Source: Candidatus Curtissbacteria bacterium RIFCSPLOWO2_02_41_11 (GTDB lineage: Bacteria > Patescibacteriota > Microgenomatia > Curtissbacterales > GWA2-41-24). From it: a stretch of 64,000 bases of DNA. Shown here in pieces: positions 51,465 to 64,000 of the stretch. Position numbers and translations under genes: made by a program. A model generated the notes under the pieces. That model was not told where the DNA came from and did not search any database. It saw only the letters and a program-made list of their open reading frames with translations. How positions within the stretch are numbered: the first letter of the stretch is position 1; each line of letters begins with the position of its first letter. Location of the stretch: NCBI GenBank assembly GCA_001775055.1, contig MFBU01000009.1:382-64381 (forward strand), written 5' to 3'.

Positions 51465-52649
51465 TTATGTGTTGGAGTTTTCACCGGCGATCTTTTTTTT
51501 AAAGGCGCTGATTTCCATTTGTCCAAGATCTTTGCCCTCACGAGTACGCACGGCAATTTTTTGGCCCTCTTTTTCTTTTTCTCCGATTACCAAAAGATAA
51601 GGAATTTTTTGCAAAGTTGCATTTCTGATTTTTGCCTCTAGTCTTTCGTTTCTTAAGTCAATTTCTGTGCGGATGTTGGCGACTTTAAGTTCTTCAAAAA
51701 CTTTATGGGCGTATGAGGCGACTTTATCGGAAATTGGCAAGATGACTACCTGAATGGGTGAAAGCCAAAAAGACAGATTGCCTTGAGTGTGTTCAAGCAA
51801 AATACCGATGAAGCGCTCGAGGGATCCAAAAATTCCCCGATGGATCATGGCAGGCCGCTCCTTTTGTCCGTCTTGATTGATAAAGGAAAGGTTCATGCTT
51901 TGGGGGATTTGAAAATCAAGCTGGATGGTAGCTAGTTGCCAGTCGCGGCCTTGGGAGTCATTGATGTGGATGTCGATTTTTGGACCATAAAAGGCGCCCT
52001 CCTTGAGTTTCATGCCAAATTTGACCTTAGCGCTCTTGAGGGCTTCTTCTAAATCTTTCTCGGCCTCTTGCCAGCTTTTTGTATCCCCCATTGCTTTTTC
52101 AGGTCGGGTCGCCAGATAGAATTTTGGTACAAAATCCAGTGTTTTATAAACATCCATTACCAAGAGTAATAATTTGTGTATTTCTTCTTGGATTTGATCT
52201 CGTCTAACAAAAAGATGGGCATCATCAATAACGAATTGACGGACCCGCAATAAGCCCCCTAAAACACCCGAAAGTTCATTTCTATGGAGAATTCCAAACT
52301 CGGAAAGCTTGAGTGGTAAATCATGGTAGCTTCTGATTTTAGAAGAATAAACAATTGTTGATTCTGGGCAATTCATTGGTTTTAAGGAATAATCCTCTTT
52401 ATCAACTTTTAGATTGAAGATGTCATCGCCAAAGTGTTCCCAGTGGCCTGATTGTTTAAAAAGAGCGGATTTAACCATAACGGGTGTGGAGGTTTCCATA
52501 TAACCTTCATCTTTGGTTTTTTCTCTAATGAAGTTGACAAGGGTCTGATAGATCAACCAGCCTTTTGGGTGCCAGAAAATCGCACCTGGTGCGAATTGGT
52601 GGAATGAAAAAAGATCGAGTTCGCGGCCAATTTGCCGGTGGTCTTTCAT
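51465..52649 (-). CDS. thrS: threonyl-tRNA synthetase, catalytic + anticodon-binding core only (394 aa)
   Basis: Starts MKDHRQIGRELDLFSF (class II core); no room upstream for the N-terminal TGS or editing domains. Confidence 0.85.
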   Translation of the reverse strand: MKDHRQIGRELDLFSFHQFAPGAIFWHPKGWLIYQTLVNFIREKTKDEGYMETSTPVMVKSALFKQSGHWEHFGDDIFNLKVDKEDYSLKPMNCPESTIVYSSKIRSYHDLPLKLSEFGILHRNELSGVLGGLLRVRQFVIDDAHLFVRRDQIQEEIHKLLLLVMDVYKTLDFVPKFYLATRPEKAMGDTKSWQEAEKDLEEALKSAKVKFGMKLKEGAFYGPKIDIHINDSQGRDWQLATIQLDFQIPQSMNLSFINQDGQKERPAMIHRGIFGSLERFIGILLEHTQGNLSFWLSPIQVVILPISDKVASYAHKVFEELKVANIRTEIDLRNERLEAKIRNATLQKIPYLLVIGEKEKEGQKIAVRTREGKDLGQMEISAFKKKIAGENSNT

Positions 52650-52658
52650 TGTTTTCGG

Positions 52659-52928
52659 TTATTGGACTGGCATTTGTACTTTAGAAGTTGCATCCTGAAG
52701 GATTTGGGCAACCCAAGTACCAATGATTGGAATAAGGTTTATTTTTGAAACAAAGTATCCGGCAGCCATTGCCAAAATAGCTAGACCTACAAAAGTCCCA
52801 AAACTCCAGGCAAGTCCGCCCAGAAAATTATCAAGCAAAATCTTCCAGCGGCTTTTGTAGGGCTGCAAGTATTTATTGGCACCGGTTGCCTTTTGTGGTT
52901 CCTGTTCTGCTTGTTGGTTAGGGTCCAT
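52659..52928 (-). CDS. small two-TM membrane protein
   Basis: ORF plus hydrophobic segments. Confidence 0.45.
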   Translation of the reverse strand: MDPNQQAEQEPQKATGANKYLQPYKSRWKILLDNFLGGLAWSFGTFVGLAILAMAAGYFVSKINLIPIIGTWVAQILQDATSKVQMPVQ

Positions 52929-52974: not shown

Positions 52975-53331
52975 TTAGACTGGTGTCTCGATGGGAGTTG
53001 ATTTTCTTTGTTTTTCTAGTTCTTTTCTGTTTCTAATTTGATAGTAAAGTTTAACTCTGCTTTCCAGATCATAAGGCGGCTCTTTATTTAAAAGTTCATA
53101 ATATACTTCTACCCATTGGGATTTTCCAAGAGCTACTTCGTCACCAGTTTCAGGATCTACAGCTTTATAAGGGAAGTTAGCGATATCTGTACCTACGATT
53201 TGTACCATTCTTATACTTTTTATTGTACCGTCCCTTCTTCGTGTTAGTTTTTGATAAAAGACTGGGTTAGAACGACCATCAGGGTTAGGACCTATTTCTT
53301 GCGATGATTCATTCATTTCTATCCCCACCAA
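52975..53331 (-). CDS. hypothetical protein (118 aa)
   Basis: ORF, overlaps the upstream gene by 13 nt. Confidence 0.45.
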   Translation of the reverse strand: MVGIEMNESSQEIGPNPDGRSNPVFYQKLTRRRDGTIKSIRMVQIVGTDIANFPYKAVDPETGDEVALGKSQWVEVYYELLNKEPPYDLESRVKLYYQIRNRKELEKQRKSTPIETPV

Positions 53332-53669
53332 ATTTCCTTTATGCGGCTATTTTCTTTATCAACGCCAAAGAATTTTAGACAATAATCAAGGGCGAGTTCT
53401 TTATTAAATTCCTTACAAGAGAAGATATCAATGAGGGCTTCATCGTATTTGGTAAATGAGTGAACCGAGATATCGGAATAATCAATGATGACAACAGCTG
53501 ATAGACCGGGGTTTTCGGGAAGACCTTCGGCAATTATTGGCCCTTCCAAAATTGTCATATTAAGCATTTTGACAAAACCTTCGAGGAATTCGCGGATAGC
53601 CTGTTTATCTTTGATTTTTTCGTTGCAGTTTTTAAGATCGCAGATGATGTGGTAGCGTTTTGTTTGCAT
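53319..53669 (-). CDS. speH: S-adenosylmethionine decarboxylase proenzyme, small bacterial/archaeal type (SpeH-like)
   Basis: RYHIICDLKNCN (compare HIIAELYGCD) and AVVIIDYSDISVHSFTKYDEALIDIFSCKEF (compare [29 protein letters not shown]), including the processing-site Ser region. Confidence 0.7.
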   Translation of the reverse strand: MQTKRYHIICDLKNCNEKIKDKQAIREFLEGFVKMLNMTILEGPIIAEGLPENPGLSAVVIIDYSDISVHSFTKYDEALIDIFSCKEFNKELALDYCLKFFGVDKENSRIKEIWWG

Positions 53670-53763
53670 TTCAAGTTTTATTGTAAGTGAAAATGCTTAC
53701 TTGAGCAAGAAGAGATGATTTGAATGTATTTGAGATTTCTTGTAAAATCATCTGTGGCTCATC

Positions 53764-53837
53764 GGGCTCATAGCTCAGTTGGTTAGAGCGTCACGTTGAC
53801 ATCGTGGAGGTCAGAGGTTCAAATCCTCTTGAGCCCA
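53764..53837 (+). tRNA. tRNA-Val (anticodon GAC)
   Basis: Cloverleaf folded by hand: acceptor GGGCTCA/TGAGCCC, D-arm GCTC-AGTTGGTTA-GAGC, anticodon arm TCACG-TTGACAT-CGTGG, T-arm AGAGG-TTCAAAT-CCTCT, discriminator A. CCA not encoded. Confidence 0.9.
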
Positions 53838-53872
53838 CATTGTGAAACTTTGGAGCATTTCTATTTTGGGAT

Positions 53873-54355
53873 TTACTCCACCCCACCTATATGATCAATC
53901 ATTTCTTGAGTAGGACCCTTTATGGAGTAATTTGTTGCGAGTCTTCGGAGTTGTTCTTCGCTTGTATCAGTAGTATTTCCTACGGGACTATAAAAATAAG
54001 GTAATCCTTGTTCATTCAATCTTAAAGAAACAACATAGTATTCAATTTTCTTCCAATAAGGTTTGTACTGGTCAATAGTTCTTTCGACAGTCCAGCTGGC
54101 AAGCAAGCTATTATCAAAAGGACGGAATTCTGAATTAAATAAAACAGCCTGTCCATCTAATTGGAAGACTTCATCGTTTTGTCTGAACGTTGTTCTGTAT
54201 CCAAAACGCCCCCATCCTTTTCGAGCTAAGTTTCTAATAACCGCATCCGTGTATTTTTTAACTGGCGTTAAATGTTCTGCAACTTTTTTTCTTTGAGCAG
54301 AAGTTTGTTCTTCATTTTTAATTAAATTTCTTGGTAGGCTTTCTTGATCTTTCAT
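53873..54355 (-). CDS. hypothetical protein (160 aa), last gene of the 7-gene operon
   Basis: ORF only. Confidence 0.5.
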   Translation of the reverse strand: MKDQESLPRNLIKNEEQTSAQRKKVAEHLTPVKKYTDAVIRNLARKGWGRFGYRTTFRQNDEVFQLDGQAVLFNSEFRPFDNSLLASWTVERTIDQYKPYWKKIEYYVVSLRLNEQGLPYFYSPVGNTTDTSEEQLRRLATNYSIKGPTQEMIDHIGGVE

Positions 54356-54420
54356 TGTTATACGGCGTCTATTGTTATCCTTGGAGTTGTAAAGTGTCCT
54401 TCGGTAGCGCTCAGGATACT

Positions 54421-55032
54421 TTACCCTTGCAATTGTAAAGTACCTTGTTCGTAGACTTTCATTTGCTTACCAGAAACCCAAGCCAGCATGCCGGTCGTGC
54501 GTTTGGCATTTTGTCTTTGGGCAACAAGCTCTTGAGCGCTTTTTGACTCTTCCGCTTTAATCCTTAAATATCTGACAATTGAAGTTAGTCTTTTTATGTC
54601 CAAGATCCCCACTTTTTTAGGTGTTGTTTCGATATGTGCTTTGGTTTCAACTCCAGCTGCTTTGGCCAATTTGGCGACTTCTGTCTGAAGCTGGCCGAAT
54701 TCTTCTTTCAGTTGTGTCTGTTCCTTTTGTGATCTGTTTTCTTGAACTCTGTATTCGTTTTGAATGACGCTAAATAATTCCGAAGCTTTTGATTGTGAGT
54801 CTTGATCGTCTTTATTTCCCATCTCATCAAGTCTTTGTTTATTTCTGGCCCTTTGCAGTTCTTCATGGGCAATAGCTTGGGGATTCTTGCCAACTCCCCT
54901 TTTAGTACCAAAAAAACTACCCAGTTCCGAAGCTGCTTCCTCAAGCATTGGCCCGGCAACTTGAGATTTAAGAGTTTCCAATGGCTCAAATGCGGCTTGT
55001 GCCACACCTTTAGCAACCTGTGTTGGTTTCAT
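54421..55032 (-). CDS. hypothetical coiled-coil protein (203 aa)
   Basis: ORF; charged, heptad-like regions, no transmembrane segment. Confidence 0.5.
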   Translation of the reverse strand: MKPTQVAKGVAQAAFEPLETLKSQVAGPMLEEAASELGSFFGTKRGVGKNPQAIAHEELQRARNKQRLDEMGNKDDQDSQSKASELFSVIQNEYRVQENRSQKEQTQLKEEFGQLQTEVAKLAKAAGVETKAHIETTPKKVGILDIKRLTSIVRYLRIKAEESKSAQELVAQRQNAKRTTGMLAWVSGKQMKVYEQGTLQLQG

Positions 55033-55047
55033 GTCATGCGTATTTTA

Positions 55048-55452
55048 TTACTTTTCAAAGCTAATATCAAGTTGGACTTGGGGAGACGCTAATTTTTTTT
55101 GATAGTCGCGAAAATTATCGAGTTGATTATTATAAGTTTCTATTTCTTTTGAAAGATCGGCAAATTGCGGATTAATCAAAGACTTGGGACTGGTTGTTGT
55201 TGTTAGCGGTGGAGGTGCCGTGACGATTTCGTCTTGGCCTTTTGATGAAAGCAAAAGCAATCCGAGGTAAATAACAAAAATAAGACCAACAAGACTAACC
55301 AAGGTAATTAACTTTGGCTTTTTAAGCGTAAGATGAATCTTAATTTTCGGCAGTTTCAGCTTAGGACATTCATTTTTCTGATTAACTGGTTCTGAAATGT
55401 TCTCTTCAGTAATGATTTCTTGTTCCATTGGGCCGGTACTTTCAATGTTCAT
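55048..55452 (-). CDS. hypothetical single-TM membrane protein
   Basis: Transmembrane segment LITLVSLVGLIFVIYLGLLLL; 4-nt overlap with the upstream gene. Confidence 0.5.
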   Translation of the reverse strand: MNIESTGPMEQEIITEENISEPVNQKNECPKLKLPKIKIHLTLKKPKLITLVSLVGLIFVIYLGLLLLSSKGQDEIVTAPPPLTTTTSPKSLINPQFADLSKEIETYNNQLDNFRDYQKKLASPQVQLDISFEK

Positions 55453-56297
55453 AGAATTCCGATTACCTCCTTAAATAAAGGTTTTGACCTCAGAAGTTCA
55501 TTTTTAGCAAGTTGGGCAAAGCTTGAAATGTCTTTAAGTTCGTCCCCAGACGCTGTTTGCTCTTTGGTTTTTTCAAGTAATTCTTTTGCTTTTGTCAGGT
55601 AATTTTGGGTTTTAGCCTTGATATTTGTGATTTCCGAGATCCAGTTGGCAAGGATCGATTGGTTTTGGTCTTTTTCAATTTTTGATGTGATAATTTTGTC
55701 CAAATCTCGGGCGAGTTTGTTGAAATCGGCAATTGCCGACTGTGCTTCAATTACCTCGAAAGTAGCCAAAATTTTATTGATTTTTAGATTAAATTCTTTG
55801 TCACGGTGGCTGCGAAGATCAGTTGCCAGATCGGGTAACTGCTCAAGAGTTTTGGCATCTTTAACTTTTTTTCGGTGATTGTCAAAAAAGGCAATTTCCT
55901 CATCAATAATTTGATTGATATGATCTTTTGAGATATCGCTATTTTGCCAACCGAGGCTGTTGCCGTTTTCATTAACTAAAAATAAATAGGCGTGATAAAG
56001 ATCGTCGATTTTTAAAAGGTAATCACTGGTTGCAAGATAGGCATTATTTTTGGCAGTTGCCGTCTGAAAAGTTAGATAACTTGAGCGAGCATTTATATAC
56101 TTATTTTGTGCTTCTCGATACTTAGTGAACTGGAAAGTATAGTCGTTTTGAGCTTTATCAAGCGCAGTCAAAGGCACAGGTGACTGCGCCAGTGAATAGT
56201 TAATAGTCAATAGTGAATAGATTGCGAGTAGTATAAAAAGTTTGATAAATGTATGGACTATTTTGTTTTTGAAATTAGAAATTTGAAGAGTGGGCAT
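55449..56297 (-). CDS. hypothetical secreted/membrane-anchored coiled-coil protein
   Basis: N-terminal signal/anchor FIKLFILLAIYSLLTINYSLA. Confidence 0.5.
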   Translation of the reverse strand: MPTLQISNFKNKIVHTFIKLFILLAIYSLLTINYSLAQSPVPLTALDKAQNDYTFQFTKYREAQNKYINARSSYLTFQTATAKNNAYLATSDYLLKIDDLYHAYLFLVNENGNSLGWQNSDISKDHINQIIDEEIAFFDNHRKKVKDAKTLEQLPDLATDLRSHRDKEFNLKINKILATFEVIEAQSAIADFNKLARDLDKIITSKIEKDQNQSILANWISEITNIKAKTQNYLTKAKELLEKTKEQTASGDELKDISSFAQLAKNELLRSKPLFKEVIGIL

Positions 56298-56314
56298 TAC
56301 TCCAATTTTAGTGC

Positions 56315-57508
56315 TTATTCGTGGCGAAGAGCAACAATCGGTTCAAGCCGAGACGCTCGAATAGCTGGAGCAACTCCAAAGATAATACCAACTAGTGACG
56401 AGAAACCAAAGCCTAATAAAACTGCCCATAGGGGTACGGCAGTTTGGATAAATCTGGCAAGAGCAAGTGAGCCCAAGTATCCAATTAAAATGCCGATTGC
56501 GCCGCCCGAAATTGAAAGAATAACGGCTTCTGTTAAAAACTGTCCGAGGATGTCGCCCGATCTGGCACCGACAGCTTTCCTAAGGCCAATTTCGCGAGTC
56601 CTTTCAGTTACCGAGACTAACATAATATTGGAAATGCCGACCCCACCGACGATTAGAGAAATAGCAGCAATGCCACCGAGTGCAAAAGTTAAAACCCCTA
56701 AGATTTGCAAGATTGAAGATAGCAATTGTTCTTGGGTAAGAATGGAAAAATCATCCTCGGATAAGGTACGTTTGAGAATTTTTTCAACATGAGTTTTAGC
56801 TGTTGGAATAGTTTGAGCTGATGTGGTTCTCACTAAAATCGAGTTGACCTGATCGCTGCCTGTTAGGGCGCGCGCCGAATTTAAGGGGATAATGGCTTGG
56901 TTATCGACGTCGACTCCGCCAACGTTGCCTTGAGGTTCTAAAACACCAATGACAGTAAAGGATTTTTTGGAAAGCGAGATTGTTTGGCCTATCGGATCCT
57001 GTGCTGAATAGAGGTCGCTGGCTAATGTTTTACCAATGACTGCGACTTTTCTGGAGGTTTGATTATCCTTTTCGCTAAAAGGTCTGCCGCTTTCGGTTTT
57101 GATGTCAAAGATTGAAAAATAAGTGCTCCTGGTACCTGCCAACGTTGTCACTTTACTTTTATTTCGGTAAGTGGCTGTGATGTTTATTTCAATAAAAGGT
57201 GCAATGTCAATAATGGCTTCACTTTTTTCTTTTTCGAGTTTTTCGGCCAGCTTGAAGGTGATTTTGTTGACTGCTCGTGGAGGTCCTCCCTGGGGTCCAA
57301 ATTGGACCTTGCCCGGTAAAATAAAAATGGTGTTGGTGCCCAGTTTTTCAAATTGAGCCGAAATGTAGCTTTGGAGTCCCGAGCCAATCGATATCAAAAG
57401 AATAATTGCCGCCACACCAATAATTATTCCAAGAGAAGTCAAAAATGATCTGAGTTTATTTATTCTTAGTGCTTCTTGAGCGCTGTTAATTGTTTCAAGA
57501 ATTTCCAT
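56315..57508 (-). CDS. ABC transporter permease, FtsX/MacB family
   Basis: N-terminal transmembrane segment, large periplasmic domain, three C-terminal transmembrane helices ending in a VALRHE-like motif. Confidence 0.85.
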   Translation of the reverse strand: MEILETINSAQEALRINKLRSFLTSLGIIIGVAAIILLISIGSGLQSYISAQFEKLGTNTIFILPGKVQFGPQGGPPRAVNKITFKLAEKLEKEKSEAIIDIAPFIEINITATYRNKSKVTTLAGTRSTYFSIFDIKTESGRPFSEKDNQTSRKVAVIGKTLASDLYSAQDPIGQTISLSKKSFTVIGVLEPQGNVGGVDVDNQAIIPLNSARALTGSDQVNSILVRTTSAQTIPTAKTHVEKILKRTLSEDDFSILTQEQLLSSILQILGVLTFALGGIAAISLIVGGVGISNIMLVSVTERTREIGLRKAVGARSGDILGQFLTEAVILSISGGAIGILIGYLGSLALARFIQTAVPLWAVLLGFGFSSLVGIIFGVAPAIRASRLEPIVALRHE

Positions 57509-57519
57509 ATTTGACCTCT

Positions 57520-58224
57520 TTATGCTCTGATTCTTGTCGATCTGTTCTTTTTATCACTTACGATTTGGCCATCGCGAATGGTGATAATTCGCGAGGCATT
57601 TTTGGCAATATCAGCTTCGTGAGTAATCATGATGATGGTTCGGCCCTCTCGATTGAATTTTTTAAAAATTGCCATGATTTCAGCTGATGATTTAGTGTCT
57701 AGGTTGCCGGTCGGTTCATCGGCAAAGATGACCAGAGGATTGTTAATCAGGGCTCGGGCAATGGCCACTCTTTGTTGTTGACCGCCGGAAAGTTGGGCGG
57801 GGGTAGACTCAAGTTTATCAGAAAGACCCACTTCTTTGAGGGCTTGGATTGTTCTCTTTAGTCTTTCCTGTTTTCCGACTCCAGCATAAACAAGCGGTAG
57901 TTGAACATTTTTAATAGATGTTGTTCTGGGCAAGAGATTGAAGAATTGGAAGACAAAACCGATCTTTTGGCTTCTAATTTTGGCAAATTCGTTATCTGAT
58001 AGTTTTGAGGCGAGTTTGCCGTCAAACAAATACTCACCCGAGGTTGGTTTATCAAGGCAGCCTAAAATATGCATCAGCGTTGATTTACCTGATCCTGAAG
58101 GACCGATAATAGCCACAAACTCCCCCTTTTTGACCTCAAGTGAAACTTTATTTAAGGCAACTGTTTCATTGGGGGATTCCCCATATATTTTTATTAAATT
58201 TTTGGCAGAAATTATGCCACTCAT
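57520..58224 (-). CDS. ABC transporter ATP-binding protein (MacB/LolD-type)
   Basis: Walker A GPSGSGKST, signature LSGGQQQRVAIARAL, Walker B IIFADEPT. Confidence 0.9.
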   Translation of the reverse strand: MSGIISAKNLIKIYGESPNETVALNKVSLEVKKGEFVAIIGPSGSGKSTLMHILGCLDKPTSGEYLFDGKLASKLSDNEFAKIRSQKIGFVFQFFNLLPRTTSIKNVQLPLVYAGVGKQERLKRTIQALKEVGLSDKLESTPAQLSGGQQQRVAIARALINNPLVIFADEPTGNLDTKSSAEIMAIFKKFNREGRTIIMITHEADIAKNASRIITIRDGQIVSDKKNRSTRIRA

Positions 58225-59327
58225 TTAAAGAAGCTTAGAATTTTTTGGACTAAGTTTTTCTTGTCAATTTGATCAAAACCGGAAATGGCAAGTTGATCAC
58301 CTTTATTAAGTCCTGAAGTGATTTGAACTTCCAGTTCCGACTCAAGGCCTTTCTGGATCTCTCTTTTTTGAAAAGTATCATTGGTTTTAAGCCAAACGTA
58401 TTTATCATTGACTAGGGCGTCAAGGGGGATCGTCAGGGATTGTGGGACCTCTTGGATAATAATTTCGGCTTCGCCGTTCATGCCCAGACGTAAGTTTTCA
58501 GGCGGATCAAGGTTGATTTTAACTTCAAAGGCAGTTGCACCGGTTGAAGTGGTGATAGTTTTGGGACCGATAAAGTCGACTTGGGTTTCAATTGGCTGAT
58601 TGTCAAAAGCATCCAAAGTAATATAGGCTTTTTGGCCGACTTTGACTTGGCCGATTTCAGACTCGTCAACTTCGGCTACGAATTGCAGTTTACCAAAATC
58701 GGCAACTGTCGCAATGGTGTCGGTTGGGAAAACAAAATTACCGGCAAAAAACTCTCCCTTGTTGATAATGTATCCATTGATCGGCGAAGTTAGTCTTGAA
58801 AACTGAATTGCCAAATCTCGTATTTCAACATCAATAACAGAGTTATCCAAATCAGCCTGAGACCTTTGAGCAATTCTTTTTAAAGTGTCAGTGATGACTT
58901 TATCTTTTTGCGAATCTTTAACATCCTCAAAATCAAGGCGAGTTTTAAAATAAGTATTCAGATCTCTCCTTAATCTTTTTTCAAGCTCTTGGGAATCTAG
59001 TGAAGCGATTGTTTGACCCCTTCTGACATAATTCCCTTCTTTAGCGCTAATCCAGGCTAGTTTGCCGGAAGTTAAAAAACGCAAAGTACTTTCATTTTCG
59101 GAAGCTATTTTACCCGAGGCCGTTACCTGAGTTTCCAAAGTTTTTTCGGTAACTTGGGTAGTTTTGATTTTGCTGGTCTCTGCCCCACCGCGGGTGGCAA
59201 AAAAGATGATAAGAACAACGGCAACGACTGCCACGATTGTCCTTCGTGATTTGGCAAATTTGGTTAGCTTTTTAAAGATGTTATTGTTCGAGCCTCGTCG
59301 AGAACTTTTTATGCTTGGAATTTTCAT
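58221..59327 (-). CDS. periplasmic adaptor (HlyD/MacA membrane-fusion protein family)
   Basis: N-terminal transmembrane segment, coiled coil, biotinyl-lipoyl-like and beta-barrel segments. 4-nt overlap with the ATPase gene. Confidence 0.75.
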   Translation of the reverse strand: MKIPSIKSSRRGSNNNIFKKLTKFAKSRRTIVAVVAVVLIIFFATRGGAETSKIKTTQVTEKTLETQVTASGKIASENESTLRFLTSGKLAWISAKEGNYVRRGQTIASLDSQELEKRLRRDLNTYFKTRLDFEDVKDSQKDKVITDTLKRIAQRSQADLDNSVIDVEIRDLAIQFSRLTSPINGYIINKGEFFAGNFVFPTDTIATVADFGKLQFVAEVDESEIGQVKVGQKAYITLDAFDNQPIETQVDFIGPKTITTSTGATAFEVKINLDPPENLRLGMNGEAEIIIQEVPQSLTIPLDALVNDKYVWLKTNDTFQKREIQKGLESELEVQITSGLNKGDQLAISGFDQIDKKNLVQKILSFFK

Positions 59328-59390
59328 AGGCCGATATTATAGCCTAAATTATAGGTTATATCAAGTGCTGGATTTGTGGATGTGATAAAT

Positions 59391-60182
59391 TTAAACTACA
59401 AGCTCTAAGGTGTCAAAGGCGATGTGGAAGGATGGGCCGGCGTTTTGGCGCAAGTACTCTTCTAAAAATTTATGCGTGCCGGTTTTGTGGCCGATGTGCA
59501 CAAAATAAACGTTTTTGGCGCGTAAATTTTTGGCGATTTGGATGCCATCATTAATTGAAATGTGACCTTTTGTCTGTCCTATTTTGGAAAGTGATGATCC
59601 GTCAATTATTAAAACATGACAGTCACGGATAATTTTTTGGGAGGAGGGCAAAATTTTGTTGAAATCCGGAATGTACGCAAGGATAGGTCCATCCTTGACT
59701 TTAATTCCAAAAGCCGGAGTTTTGCCATGGATTACCGGGAAATACTCAACTTTTGCATGGTTGATCTCAAACGGCTGATTGGGTTTGACTACATGTGTTT
59801 TAAGGTTTTGTCCATGGATGCCAATAAATTTGCGGACATCATTTAAGACAGATTGGACAATATAGACAGGTATTGGTTTGTAAGCGTTGTAAATATGAGT
59901 TAGATCCCAGAAGCCTTCTATATGATCAAGGTGGGCATGAGAGACGAGAATTGCTTCTATTTTTGTCGGATCAACGCTCCTGTCATTCTGAGCCTTTGGC
60001 GAAGAATCTCCTGTAAGATGATGATAAGTGTCTGGACCGGCGTCAAGAAGAATTGATTCATTTATCAAAATTTGGGTTCTGGTTCGCCTGTCTTTGGGAT
60101 CGGTCGATTTGCAGATTTCGCAATTGCAGCCAAGTCGTGGCAGCGGCCATCCGGCAGAGGTTCCCAAAAACTTAATTTTCAT
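59391..60182 (-). CDS. MBL-fold metallo-hydrolase
   Basis: HAHLDHIEG (HxHxDH) motif. Confidence 0.75.
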   Translation of the reverse strand: MKIKFLGTSAGWPLPRLGCNCEICKSTDPKDRRTRTQILINESILLDAGPDTYHHLTGDSSPKAQNDRSVDPTKIEAILVSHAHLDHIEGFWDLTHIYNAYKPIPVYIVQSVLNDVRKFIGIHGQNLKTHVVKPNQPFEINHAKVEYFPVIHGKTPAFGIKVKDGPILAYIPDFNKILPSSQKIIRDCHVLIIDGSSLSKIGQTKGHISINDGIQIAKNLRAKNVYFVHIGHKTGTHKFLEEYLRQNAGPSFHIAFDTLELVV

Positions 60183-60212
60183 TGTGTCTGGTTCTTGTGG
60201 GTGGTTTGAGAT

Positions 60213-60449
60213 TTAAAAAATACTTCTAATTTGTTTTCTCAGCTCCGTAATAAGCTTATGTGTTTGATGCCAATGTTTTAAAGCCTGATCCTTTCTTTCA
60301 TTTGTACCGGGTTGAACTTGTGTTTTCCATCCTTCGACTTCACTAATGTTTTGGTCAATTTGATCCAGTGTTCCGTCAAAAGTGTCCTCGATTCGCACTA
60401 GGATTTCTTGAGAAGTTGGTGATTGATCAGTTTTATGCTCAGGACTCAT
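60213..60449 (-). CDS. hypothetical small protein
   Basis: Start trimmed to internal Met (MSPEHKT) to avoid overlap with tRNA-Leu. Confidence 0.35.
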   Translation of the reverse strand: MSPEHKTDQSPTSQEILVRIEDTFDGTLDQIDQNISEVEGWKTQVQPGTNERKDQALKHWHQTHKLITELRKQIRSIF

Positions 60450-60470
60450 AAGTTTGATTTTGATAAAAAG

Positions 60471-60552
60471 TGCCGAGGACAGGAGTCGAACCTGCACACC
60501 TTGCGGTACACGGTCCTAAACCGTGCGCGTCTGCCAGTTCCGCCACCTCGGC
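60471..60552 (-). tRNA. tRNA-Leu (anticodon TAG)
   Basis: Hand-folded class II tRNA: acceptor GCCGAGG/CCTCGGC, anticodon arm CACGG-TTTAGGA-CCGTG, long variable arm, T-loop TTCGACT. Confidence 0.88.
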
Positions 60553-60580
60553 GTAAGAAGAATTCTACCAAATTTTGGAC

Positions 60581-61390
60581 TTATGGGCGAGTTCTGTCGA
60601 TTGCTGCTTGATGGGCTTGCCATTCGATTGAATCATCAAGTGGCTCAAGTTTTACCTTGCCGTAACGTCGCTCTAAAGCCTTTGAGATTAAGAAGTCTGC
60701 AAAATGGGGATTTTTGGGCAGAAGTGAACCATGTAAATAACAGCCGAAGGCATTTTTATAGATTGCTCCTTCTGTTTGGTCTTCCCCATTATTGCCTGTA
60801 CCGATAATTACTTTGCCAAGCGGCTGGACTGCTTGGTCTAGATAAGTTTTGCCGCTATGATTTTCAAATCCTATTAAGTTAGTTGTCAATTGTCCGTTGT
60901 CAATTGTTGGATAGATTTCCTTAATTTCCTTTACTAAATTTTCTTCCAAGTCTATCCACAGGTTTTGGATCATGCGATCATGTGAGCCGATGGTATAAGC
61001 ATTAAATAGACCAATGCCTTTGATGATTTTCCCATCAAGAGTTTTAAAGTACTTTTGAAGTAGTTGATAGCCGCCACAAATTGATAAAAGGACACAACCA
61101 TTCTCAATAGCTTTTTTAAGATAATTAGCCTTAGATTGCAGATCACGGCCGACAATTATTTGCTGTCTGTCTTGACCTCCGCCGAAGAAATAAAAGTCCC
61201 AGCCGAGGGCTGGTCCGCCTTTGGCGGAAAAATCAGATAGCGAATCCCCTACACTGATATTGGTAATTTTTACATTTATCCCCCGCCATTGGCATCTCTT
61301 AACAAGATCGATGATATTACCTTTGTCTCCATAAGTGTCCATTAAATCAGGGTACAAATGACAGATATTTAGGCTTATTGGTTTTGCCAT
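60581..61390 (-). CDS. gatD: lipid II isoglutaminyl synthase glutaminase subunit GatD (CobQ-type GATase)
   Basis: ...ICGGYQLL... catalytic Cys context and ...GCYLHGSLLPKNP His. Overlaps murT. Confidence 0.75.
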   Translation of the reverse strand: MAKPISLNICHLYPDLMDTYGDKGNIIDLVKRCQWRGINVKITNISVGDSLSDFSAKGGPALGWDFYFFGGGQDRQQIIVGRDLQSKANYLKKAIENGCVLLSICGGYQLLQKYFKTLDGKIIKGIGLFNAYTIGSHDRMIQNLWIDLEENLVKEIKEIYPTIDNGQLTTNLIGFENHSGKTYLDQAVQPLGKVIIGTGNNGEDQTEGAIYKNAFGCYLHGSLLPKNPHFADFLISKALERRYGKVKLEPLDDSIEWQAHQAAIDRTRP

Positions 61391-62787
61391 TGAGTTTTGC
61401 CCCCCATTTTATTTAAGGATTTTTGGACTTCAAGCATGGCGGTATAGGTTGGCAAAACTAATAGAGTATCTTTCTTATTCATATTTTTAAGGGCTTGCTT
61501 TATTGAGTAATATATTTTCCTGTATATATTATTTTTACTCAATTTATAACCTGCGTACTTTAGTCTTGTAGCTAAGTCCCAAGCGCGCGTGCCGGCAATC
61601 TGAACCTTTTTAGTTTTTGAAGTTAATAACTCCCAATCGGTATCCCAAATCCAGGAAACGTCACGACCATCGGCAATATTGTCGTTTAAGATCAGCAGAA
61701 GATTTAATTTGTCTTTTTGCCCAAGAATTCTAATTACCTCGTTAGCGCCAGCCGGGTTTTTAATTAGAAAAATTATGATATTTTTGTTGTTGATTTTAAT
61801 CTTTTGAAATCTGCCAAAGGCAGATGTGTATTTTTCTATAGCATCTTTTGATATTTTGTGATCTATTTTGAAAATATTGGCAATGCAAAGTGCAGCCAGA
61901 ACGTTGTATACATTGTAAAGACCGGGCAAATTATAGTGAATACGAGAGCGTATTTTCGAGGAATCGAAAAGAGTAAATGGTGAATAGTCAATAGTGAGAT
62001 TAGCAGTAGTTGAGAAGTTGGGATTGAATATTAGATTTGAGGCTGTGATATTTGGATTTGGACGCTTGAAAGTGCAATTTGGGCAGGTGTAATGCCCCAT
62101 ATGGGCAGAAAGCAAAGCCGTATATTTCAGGCTTGATTGACAATTCAGACAATGTTTGATATCGGCGACGTTGGCAATTTTGGGTAGATCTATTTGCTTG
62201 TCATAGATCCCAAAATAGATAACTTTACCTCTAAAAGATTTTGTCAAAAAGCTAATGCCTGGATCGTCGGCATTGAGAATAAGAGTAGAGCTTTTCGGTA
62301 GTCTCGAGAGGCTCTTTTGCCATTTGGTTCTAATACTGTCAACTTCCCCGTATCTATCCAGTTGATCACGAAAGAGATTAAGAAGAACAATAATTTTAGG
62401 CGCTGTATTTTCAATTGCTTCAGGAAGAGTTGCTTCATCAACTTCCCAAATCGCCAGATTACTCTTAAGTTTACCTATAAGGCTGGACTTAGAAGTAAGT
62501 GTTGAGGCAATTCCTCTCAGCAGATTTGATCCTGCCCGATTATGGATAATGTTGTATTTTTTAGAAAGTATCGTCGAAATAAGTCTGGCAGTGGTCGTTT
62601 TACCGTTGGTACCCGAAATAATTATGGAACCTGATTGAATTTGTTTTGAGAGTTTTTTAACCAGTTGCGGGTCAACTTTAAGGGCAAAAAGACCAGGAGC
62701 TGTAGTTGCACCGGTTTTGCCAAATATTCTGATAATAAGGGCAATGAGCTTTCCAGCGAAAATAGCCAGTAATAATTTTAAGTCCAT
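61375..62787 (-). CDS. murT: lipid II isoglutaminyl synthase ligase subunit MurT (Mur ligase family)
   Basis: ISGTNGKTTT P-loop, Cys4 ribbon CLNCQ...CPNC, DUF1727-like C-terminus. Confidence 0.8.
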   Translation of the reverse strand: MDLKLLLAIFAGKLIALIIRIFGKTGATTAPGLFALKVDPQLVKKLSKQIQSGSIIISGTNGKTTTARLISTILSKKYNIIHNRAGSNLLRGIASTLTSKSSLIGKLKSNLAIWEVDEATLPEAIENTAPKIIVLLNLFRDQLDRYGEVDSIRTKWQKSLSRLPKSSTLILNADDPGISFLTKSFRGKVIYFGIYDKQIDLPKIANVADIKHCLNCQSSLKYTALLSAHMGHYTCPNCTFKRPNPNITASNLIFNPNFSTTANLTIDYSPFTLFDSSKIRSRIHYNLPGLYNVYNVLAALCIANIFKIDHKISKDAIEKYTSAFGRFQKIKINNKNIIIFLIKNPAGANEVIRILGQKDKLNLLLILNDNIADGRDVSWIWDTDWELLTSKTKKVQIAGTRAWDLATRLKYAGYKLSKNNIYRKIYYSIKQALKNMNKKDTLLVLPTYTAMLEVQKSLNKMGGKTQWQNQ

Positions 62788-63416: not shown

Positions 63417-63514
63417 GAGGCCTTACTCTTTTAATATCGCATGTGGAAACGTAAGTGTCAATTGGTATGGACGGTAGTTATGAAGTTGATTTTATGCTAA
63501 AATTAGCCTCAGGC

Positions 63515-63598
63515 GCCGAAGTGGCGGAACCGGTAGACGCGCAGCGTTCAGAGCGCTGTGAGCATTAGCTCGTGGAGGTTCAAATCCTCTCTTCGGCA
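63515..63598 (+). tRNA. tRNA-Leu (anticodon CAG)
   Basis: Hand-folded: acceptor GCCGAAG/CTTCGGC, anticodon arm CAGCG-TTCAGAG-CGCTG, long variable arm, T-arm GGAGG-TTCAAAT-CCTCT. Confidence 0.88.
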
Positions 63599-63602
63599 CA
63601 GC

Positions 63603-63685
63603 GCGGACGTGGCGGAATTTGGTATACGCGTACGCTTGAGGTGCGTATCCCGCAAGGGTTGGAGGTTCGAGTCCTCTCGTCCGCA
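63603..63685 (+). tRNA. tRNA-Leu (anticodon GAG)
   Basis: Hand-folded: acceptor GCGGACG/CGTCCGC, anticodon arm TACGC-TTGAGGT-GCGTA, long variable arm, T-loop TTCGAGT. Confidence 0.88.
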
Positions 63686-63699
63686 CAACTGTTGACTTC

Positions 63700-64000
63700 T
63701 TTGCCGCAATGTCGGTGATTAGATTGAATGGAAGGGCTAATCGTTGGTTTGAAAACTCCCTGCCATCAAAACTAACTCCGTCCGGGAAAATTAGCCTCTG
63801 ATATTTTAGACGGGCATCAGAAAGACTGTCGTACCAGACTAAATCAGCGGTTCTAATAAAAGCATAAGCATAACTAAGAAGTGAATCTATACTCACTTCT
63901 TCTGCGTGCATATCCGTTAAAGAGAACTTAGACAGAGTTATTTTTTGTTCAAGATCTTTTAACTGCTTTTCGAGTAGATCGTCCGGAATAACTCCTTTTT
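63700..64000 (-). CDS. possible 3' part of a gene continuing beyond the window end
   Basis: Minus-strand frame is open to the window edge; the track's downstream continuation (to 63492) runs through both tRNA-Leu genes and is not credible. Confidence 0.25.

Follow-up and report, generated by a model that had tools for sequence, protein, structure and literature searches.

Whether seven closely packed genes lying next to a tRNA gene in a Curtissbacteria genome constitute a single system is the question raised by positions 53,873 to 59,327 of a 64,000-nucleotide (nt) stretch of contig MFBU01000009.1 from Candidatus Curtissbacteria bacterium RIFCSPLOWO2_02_41_11; this whole stretch is called the window below. 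An earlier note, made from the sequence alone, had described an ATP-binding cassette (ABC) exporter followed by four proteins without recognizable domains, and had read the seven genes as one accessory system in which the four proteins were cargo or partners of the exporter. All seven co-directional genes and the adjoining tRNA-Val gene were present as described. The seven consecutive open reading frames (ORFs), all on the minus strand, encode an HlyD-like adaptor (58221-59327, 368 amino acids [aa]), an ABC ATPase (57520-58224, 234 aa), a permease (56315-57508, 397 aa) and four proteins termed here P4 (55449-56297, 282 aa), P5 (55048-55452, 134 aa), P6 (54421-55032, 203 aa) and P7 (53873-54355, 160 aa). 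Going from the adaptor gene to P7, the junctions measured -4, +11, +17, -4, +15 and +65 nt, with 4-nt overlaps between the adaptor and ATPase genes and between P4 and P5; the very close spacing ascribed to the whole run holds for the first five junctions, but not for the 65-nt spacer between P6 and P7. The comparisons described below suggest that this 5.5-kb run is probably a mosaic of three unrelated units, the exporter, the P4-P5-P6 trio and P7, which in the window genome are probably co-transcribed simply through tight packing. Thus, of the proposed accessory system the P4-P5-P6 part was retained as a syntenic module, whereas the exporter proved to be separate and P7 to be an ORFan.

Related loci were collected by exact-protein look-ups and by scanning species-representative genomes with a P6 profile, which yielded 25 of the loci. 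All window proteins were mapped onto the related loci, and tRNA genes were scanned in 19 of them. The common backbone starts with MurT, GatD and tRNA-Leu(TAG), followed in part of the loci by a metallo-beta-lactamase (MBL)-fold gene and by the adaptor-ATPase-permease cassette, then by P4, P5 and P6. Beyond P6 come a slot of variable content, tRNA-Val(GAC) and, after an interval, the genes for DUF5665, threonyl-tRNA synthetase (ThrRS), initiation factor IF3, ribosomal proteins L35 and L20, PheST and a penicillin-binding protein (PBP). The transporter genes were present all or none, and were found at 9 of the 22 informative loci (the window, L001, L007, L012, L013, L020, L021, L023 and L024). 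They were absent from the other 13 (L003, L005, L006, L008, L016, L017, L018, L019, L022, L025, L026, L027 and L028), all of which had P6, and ten of which had P4-P5 directly upstream of it. L019 and L022 carried P6 without P4/P5 and without the transporter, L027 carried all three genes of the trio and no transporter, and L007 had the transporter and P6 without P4/P5. In every bearing locus the cassette was a clean insertion directly 5' of P4, or of P6 in L007, where P4/P5 are missing. At the transporter-less loci L005, L006 and L008 the P4 gene starts 5-20 nt past the MBL gene. The exporter is an optional cassette in the short spacer just 5' of P4, behind the MBL-fold gene where that gene is present. 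P4 and P5 were co-present or co-absent at all loci, and their 4-nt overlap was conserved in 19 of 19 loci and in the window.

To compare the histories of the units, pairwise identities were determined for seven transporter-bearing genomes, among which we distinguish clade A (L001, L012, L013) and clade B (L020, L021, L023). The identities of the window to clades A and B were 69% and 55% in ThrRS and 61% and 51% in P6, respectively. The order was the reverse for the permease (48% to clade A, 69% to clade B) and for the adaptor (39% and 50%). The distances of P4, P5 and P6 correlated with each other (r = 0.90-0.94) and with those of the backbone (r = 0.72-0.88), whereas the transporter-gene distances, which correlated mutually with r = 0.75-0.87, reached only 0.32-0.61 with the backbone. 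The cassette of L007 is itself a mosaic, with an adaptor nearest to that of the window and a clade A-like permease. Because the transporter phylogeny is discordant with that of the backbone, the cassette must have passed laterally between lineages at one fixed site, with P4-P6 descending vertically. The exporter cassette has been gained, lost and exchanged between lineages, and P4-P5-P6 are a vertically inherited module specific to Curtissbacteria, passed on with or without the exporter. Such exchange agrees with the report of macB-type genes among the horizontally acquired genes of Patescibacteria (PMC12455944). Since the transporter is often missing beside P4-P6 and the phylogenies disagree, P4-P7 are unlikely to be cargo or partners of the ABC system. 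Lack of synteny with the transporter in relatives had been named in the earlier note itself as evidence against its proposal, and in most relatives the downstream genes were indeed found without the transporter; L007 is the converse case.

The exporter annotation of the first three genes was confirmed by Pfam, NCBIfam and PDB matches. The adaptor matched TIGR01730 with 137.1 bits (cutoff 94.9), HlyD_D23 (1.2e-18) and also HlyD_3. It has barrel-sandwich domains of the HlyD type, a hydrophobic segment at the N-terminus and a short hairpin, its closest solved structures in a PDB sequence search were those of MacA (4dk1, 5nik), and its orthologue in L001 showed YknX-type Pfam domains. Judged from these sequence matches, it is a membrane-anchored adaptor of the HlyD/membrane fusion protein class, similar to YknX and MacA. 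The ATPase matched PF00005 (ABC_tran, 2.8e-34), with the N-terminal half of MacB as top NCBIfam match (268 bits). It is a complete ABC ATPase of the MacB/LolD type, since both Walker motifs (A, GPSGSGKST; B, IFADEP) and the signature (LSGGQQQR) are intact. In the permease, MacB_PCD (3.8e-45, residues 21-243) was followed by FtsX (3.8e-19, residues 280-390), and the solved structures matched were those of MacB (5nik, 8e-57; also 5gko and 5lil) and of Spr0695 of S. pneumoniae (5xu1, 1.3e-42). The predicted topology, a first transmembrane (TM) segment, a large extracytoplasmic domain and three further TM segments, was shared by the orthologues. No TolC/OEP protein was detected among the ten proteins scanned between 52659 and 59327; bacteria of the candidate phyla radiation (CPR) are taken as single-membrane organisms. 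Thus, the first three genes can be classified as an ordinary MacB-type (type VII) ABC exporter of the MacAB / YknXYZ / Spr0693-0695 kind. By analogy with this family, its most likely role would be to clear the membrane surface of antimicrobial peptides or other amphiphilic toxins, through mechanotransmission powered by ATP.

The closest counterparts in layout are Spr0693-Spr0694-Spr0695, a MacAB-like efflux pump of Streptococcus pneumoniae (PMC5768738), and the Bacillus pump YknWXYZ (PMC4887032). With these the cassette shares the gene order adaptor, ATPase, permease, the separate ATPase and permease polypeptides, a four-TM permease with a large MacB-type extracytoplasmic domain, and a membrane-anchored HlyD-family adaptor in a single-membrane host with no outer-membrane channel. 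The differences are that a YknW-like fourth component is lacking, that the permease resembles E. coli MacB (8e-57) more than the Gram-positive examples, that Spr0693 was missing among the sequence matches of the adaptor, and that the cassette here is an optional element passed laterally between members of a CPR class. In MacAB-TolC, the tripartite pump of Gram-negative bacteria (reviewed in PMC5985334), both the adaptor and the permease find their best solved relatives, and the MacB fold implies the same mechanotransmission mechanism. In contrast to that pump, the ATPase and the permease are encoded by separate genes (E. coli MacB combines them in one polypeptide), the hairpin of the adaptor is short, and the host, taken as single-membrane, has no outer-membrane factor gene nearby.

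The statement that the four downstream proteins carry no recognizable domain was upheld after profile, structure-prediction and fold searches. For P4-P7 there was no above-threshold match in Pfam, NCBIfam, PHROGs or PADLOC; a sub-threshold match of P6 to DUF5660 (E = 0.008) is discussed below, and PHROGs and PADLOC gave only coiled-coil noise (e.g. a holin at 0.011 and PD-T4-9_A at 0.0015). P4 has 27 detectable homologues, all Curtissbacteria-like; a protein from Candidatus Curtissbacteria bacterium RIFCSPHIGHO2_12_41_11 matches it at 100% identity. An alignment showed an N-terminal signal sequence with a conserved cleavage-like site of peptidase type (S-L-A/Q-S-P, the slash marking the site), and P4 is probably exported by Sec and cleaved. 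Its AlphaFold2 (AF2) model, a confident one (pLDDT 87, pTM 0.76), is all-alpha with six helices. No domain match, including hydrolase or LytM-type domains, was obtained with 20 homologues, and a Foldseek search of the model against the PDB gave no match at E <= 0.001. P5, compared among 19 aligned orthologues, begins with an acidic stretch (MExEIxxEE) and a PK pair ahead of one TM segment. Past the membrane a proline/threonine-rich linker leads to a short helix, and the C-terminus carries a conserved PxVDLxIxF. P5 had no Pfam family match; it is predicted to be a one-pass membrane protein, which through the conserved 4-nt overlap would be produced in a fixed ratio with P4.

P6 is the most conserved member of the trio (45-66% identity across the class, 98% to the closest homologue). 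Every named organism among its 218 homologues belongs to Curtissbacteria, and no relatives were found in IMG/VR viral contigs. Against L035, a relative that is 91% identical, omega was 0.11. P6 is a coiled-coil protein that is basic (isoelectric point 9.4) and lacks both a signal peptide and TM segments. In the AF2 model helices span residues 4-38, 51-126 and 143-175 and are followed by a C-terminal beta hairpin, residues 51-175 being modelled with confidence. The last 30 residues are near-invariant (...GKQMKVxEQGTLQLQG), and the terminus always reads ...QGT(L/M)xLQG. Foldseek searches of the P6 model against the PDB and BFVD gave no match at E <= 0.001, and the top matches of the P6 and P4 models (PRC1, GPCRs, BAR domains) had TM-scores < 0.4. 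When the P6 and P4 alignment profiles were compared with PDB sequences, nothing fell under E = 0.008, the match at that value being keratin, i.e. coiled-coil noise.

The match of P6 to DUF5660 (PF18904) had 16.7 bits, which is under the 24-bit gathering threshold. Over the same region 19 of 26 P6-family members matched DUF5660 at E <= 0.1 (best 1.4e-4). A P6-family profile run exhaustively against 1.84 billion representatives found 29 clusters in all and retrieved the proteins P0167-P0173 at E values of 5e-11 to 5e-5, five of six passing the DUF5660 threshold. P6 and the DUF5660 proteins have in common a PxKxG motif, a basic helix and a C-terminal G-x-Q-x-K...E...LQG, and the alignment shows G, W, G-x-Q and the terminal QG as invariant in both. 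Because weak matches extend across the family and the profile retrieves threshold-passing members with the same C-terminus, P6 can be assigned, on these sequence grounds, to a divergent Curtissbacteria branch of the small, CPR-restricted DUF5660 family. This branch differs from the other members by a longer central coiled coil and by the P4-P5 pair that usually precedes P6, which is absent at the distant DUF5660 loci L031, L032, L036 and L037. At another distant locus, L034, the ORF ahead of the DUF5660 gene has a P5-like C-terminus, PFPEVDFNVSF. Distant members often lie near ThrRS or DUF5665. A metagenome scan with a three-sequence alignment of distant DUF5660 proteins found one locus only, and a search of a literature library revealed no mention of DUF5660 or DUF5665. 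The exporter belongs to a well-known kind, and the trio matches no family, fold or literature that would give it a function.

The 3' end of P6 is duplicated in the window. A relic second copy of its last seven codons (TLQLQG-stop) is found at 54375-54395 (minus) and differs at synonymous positions only. Relative to L035, the window has a 46-nt insertion at the end of P6 (about 54397-54442) that supplies the new TLQLQG-stop, with the ancestral copy 25 nt downstream; in L035 only the downstream copy is present, as the true end of P6. The synonymous divergence (dS) of P6 between the two genomes was 0.36, fivefold that of the flanking genes (about 0.065). Together, the duplicated end and the raised dS have the look of a scar left when recombination replaced the allele. 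Separately, transposase-like genes were observed directly 5' of an intact P6, in the usual place of P4/P5, in L015 (4353-6029) and L019 (8103-8807); they comprise an rve-type integrase fragment and IS200/REP-associated Y1-type transposases.

From topology and gene coupling, our best guess is that the trio forms a scaffold across the membrane. P5 would hold the secreted P4 at the cell surface through its conserved extracellular C-terminal strand, and would dock the basic P6 on the inner side through its acidic cytoplasmic N-terminus. The chances that P4 and P5 physically pair appear to be about even, and a full three-part P4-P5-P6 complex is a tentative proposal that we think unlikely to hold. 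The more specific idea of a previously undescribed membrane-spanning Curtissbacteria apparatus, which could not act without the invariant free end of P6 (...LQG), has to be viewed as rather unlikely. P6 clearly also functions without P4/P5, since four loci and other CPR lineages have kept it on its own. A role of the trio in the envelope or cell wall may be suggested by its neighbours, MurT/GatD and a class A PBP.

P7, which had been counted as a member of the module, gave only two matches in 5.8 billion proteins, both near-identical. With tblastn at E <= 1, nothing was found at any collected locus, the 25 loci of the species-representative scan included, except L035, where the gene is frameshifted. 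Its omega of 0.83 is an estimate from 25 substitutions (19 non-synonymous, 6 synonymous). P7 is a strain-level ORFan, very young or decaying, and stands outside any conserved module. It occupies the slot between P6 and tRNA-Val, which across the loci is 37 to 3944 nt long and contains unrelated genes. The tRNA-Val(GAC) gene of the window (53764-53838, plus) is convergent with P7, its 3' end lying 34 nt from the P7 stop. Inserts of at least 500 nt were present in 8 of 11 loci in which the tRNA 3' end faces P6, as opposed to 1 of 9 otherwise (Fisher p = 0.0098, uncorrected for phylogeny). As a side observation, this slot (53838-54421 in the window, and its equivalent in L001-L028) behaves as a hot spot for small unrelated insertions of 0 to about 3.9 kb, mostly where the tRNA is inverted, with no integrase or att repeat seen.

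These features of the slot bear on a rival explanation, in which a genomic island or integrative element inserted at the tRNA-Val 3' end makes up all or part of the region; the earlier note had taken the adjacent tRNA gene as one sign of an accessory module and had raised an integrated element as a possibility to check. The variable length and unrelated contents of the slot, the link between large inserts and a tRNA 3' end facing P6, and the exact placement of P7 in the slot would all fit. However, the 24-nt tRNA-Val 3' end, with up to 3 mismatches allowed, matched only itself in the 64 kb. A general repeat search of 53600-60700 gave, apart from the duplicated P6 3' end, only short repeats at chance level and no flanking direct repeat; no integrase or recombinase was found among the window genes scanned by domain libraries, and the GC content across 53-60 kb (0.37-0.42) was like that of the rest of the window. 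Moreover, tRNA-Val(GAC) lies downstream of P6 in 19 of 19 related loci scanned, only P7 and its slot vary, and P7 separates the tRNA from the transporter and the trio, the latter being backbone. The tRNA gene is an adjacent part of the conserved backbone, the seven genes do not form an island, and for the region as a whole this explanation is already refuted; taken together with the version that covers only a part, we hold it to be highly improbable. At most, P7 alone could be the remnant of a small insertion; the same 0.5-kb segment was not found elsewhere.

The other broad rival takes all seven genes as one system, with P4-P7 acting as cargo, regulators or extracellular partners of the transporter, on the model of FtsEX and its partners EnvC, PcsB and CwlO. 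The tight spacing in the window speaks for this, as does the cassette lying directly 5' of P4 (of P6 in L007) in all nine bearing loci. As in the FtsEX systems, the gene of a MacB-superfamily transporter stands beside that of a secreted helical protein, and in FtsEX systems the FtsX-type extracytoplasmic domains bind secreted helical partners, the kind of protein that P4 appears to be. The resemblance goes no further: the scores were far under the equivalog cutoffs (FtsE model 212, cutoff 265; FtsX_Gpos 25, cutoff 225), FtsEX has no adaptor whereas this locus encodes one, and P4, unlike EnvC, PcsB and CwlO, lacks a hydrolase, LytM-type or activator domain and is found without a transporter in most relatives. 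With 13 of 22 informative loci devoid of the transporter and ten of these retaining P4-P5-P6, with L007 having a transporter but no P4/P5, with discordant transporter and P4-P6 phylogenies and with P7 an ORFan, the one-system explanation is largely refuted by synteny and we regard it as improbable. A narrower rival makes P4-P5-P6 very divergent divisome proteins of the FtsQ/FtsL/FtsB type, or a PspA/LiaH-type stress protein with small membrane anchors. With its short cytoplasmic tail, single TM segment and extracellular helix, P5 has a topology like that of FtsL/DivIC, P6 gave weak FtsL matches (TIGR02209, E = 0.0025; FtsL_2 in 1 of 26 members) and is, like PspA, a helical hairpin of ~200 aa, and MurT/GatD and PBP are in the neighbourhood. 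But the FtsL matches fall in coiled-coil segments far below the cutoff (17.7 bits vs 42.45), P6 has no TM segment and so cannot be FtsL, and the all-alpha P4 is unlike a POTRA domain. There was no PspA_IM30 match, no PspA/ESCRT-III structure among the Foldseek PDB matches of P6, and nothing in the profile search of PDB sequences; we consider this relationship very doubtful. Some points weigh against the mosaic and the scaffold that we favour. In nine of nine transporter-bearing loci the cassette adjoins P4, or P6 in L007, and a functional link is conceivable there; the absence of the transporter was scored at this locus; the distance-matrix comparison comprises n = 7 genomes; few substitutions stand behind the P7 omega; and the interaction within the trio is deduced from topology and gene coupling.

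A few further candidates were rejected. P6 was considered as a Pup- or ubiquitin-like modifier on account of its terminal glycine, but it is a 200-aa coiled-coil protein with no ligase nearby, and it is scarcely credible that this glycine marks a conjugated or processed protein. A WXG100/type VII secretion system was dismissed because there is no EssC-type ATPase and the W-x-x-G lies outside the hairpin turn, a ClyA-type pore-forming toxin for lack of a fold match, and a helical-bimodular sensor domain in P4 because the match to McpS had a TM-score of 0.15.

Several features around the locus were recorded. A promoter-like sequence of the sigma-70 type (TTGATA-17-TATAAT, 59336-59364, minus), a consensus match only, agrees with 11 of 12 consensus positions and lies 9 nt 5' of the adaptor gene start, inside the 63-nt spacer behind the MBL-fold gene. 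The latter (59391-60182, minus) encodes a hydrolase with an N-terminal CxCxxC motif and is conserved in 12 of 22 informative loci, its orthologue matching the Pfam families Anti-Pycsar Apyc1 and Lactamase_B_2. The MBL gene is directly 5' of P4 at loci lacking the transporter and may therefore belong to one operon with the trio. Further upstream, the MurT/GatD pair (60581-62787, minus), whose orthologues match Mur-ligase-like and MurT_C domains and GATase_3, respectively, precedes the locus in all relatives; in Gram-positive bacteria MurT/GatD amidates lipid II. A 3.3-kb segment contains three tRNA-Leu genes (TAG, 60470-60552; CAG, 63515-63599; GAG, 63603-63686), two of which form a tandem pair separated by 3 nt, and the mechanical ORFs 60213-60497 and 63492-63911, which overlap tRNA-Leu genes, are probably not real genes. 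On the other side, the ThrRS of the window (51465-52649, minus) has 394 aa with catalytic core and anticodon-binding domains only, the TGS and editing domains that typical bacterial enzymes carry at the N-terminus apparently being absent; its relatives have 400 aa (L001, L003) or 466 aa (L031). Directly 5' of ThrRS, abutting or overlapping it, lies the gene of a small membrane protein with one or two predicted TM segments that belongs to DUF5665, a CPR family. It is preceded by a poorly conserved hydrophilic ORF of 94-170 aa, the two occupying 52659-52928 and 52975-53331 (minus) in the window. The DUF5665-ThrRS arrangement was seen in the window, in most related loci covering the region (e.g. 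L001 and L003) and in one or more of the more distant lineages (L037); thus, DUF5660 and DUF5665 travel in the same neighbourhood.

The exporter is an ordinary accessory cassette with no demonstrable link to the adjoining uncharacterized genes, and the locus offers a clean natural example of how macB-type pumps are gained, lost and exchanged, cassette by cassette, at a fixed site in streamlined Patescibacteria. The remaining interest lies in the three-gene module, which is conserved across Curtissbacteria and includes an anchor protein in the CPR-restricted DUF5660 family. If it is true that P4, P5 and P6 form an envelope complex, DUF5660 would gain its first functional context, for instance in the envelope growth, division or host attachment of such ultra-small cells.

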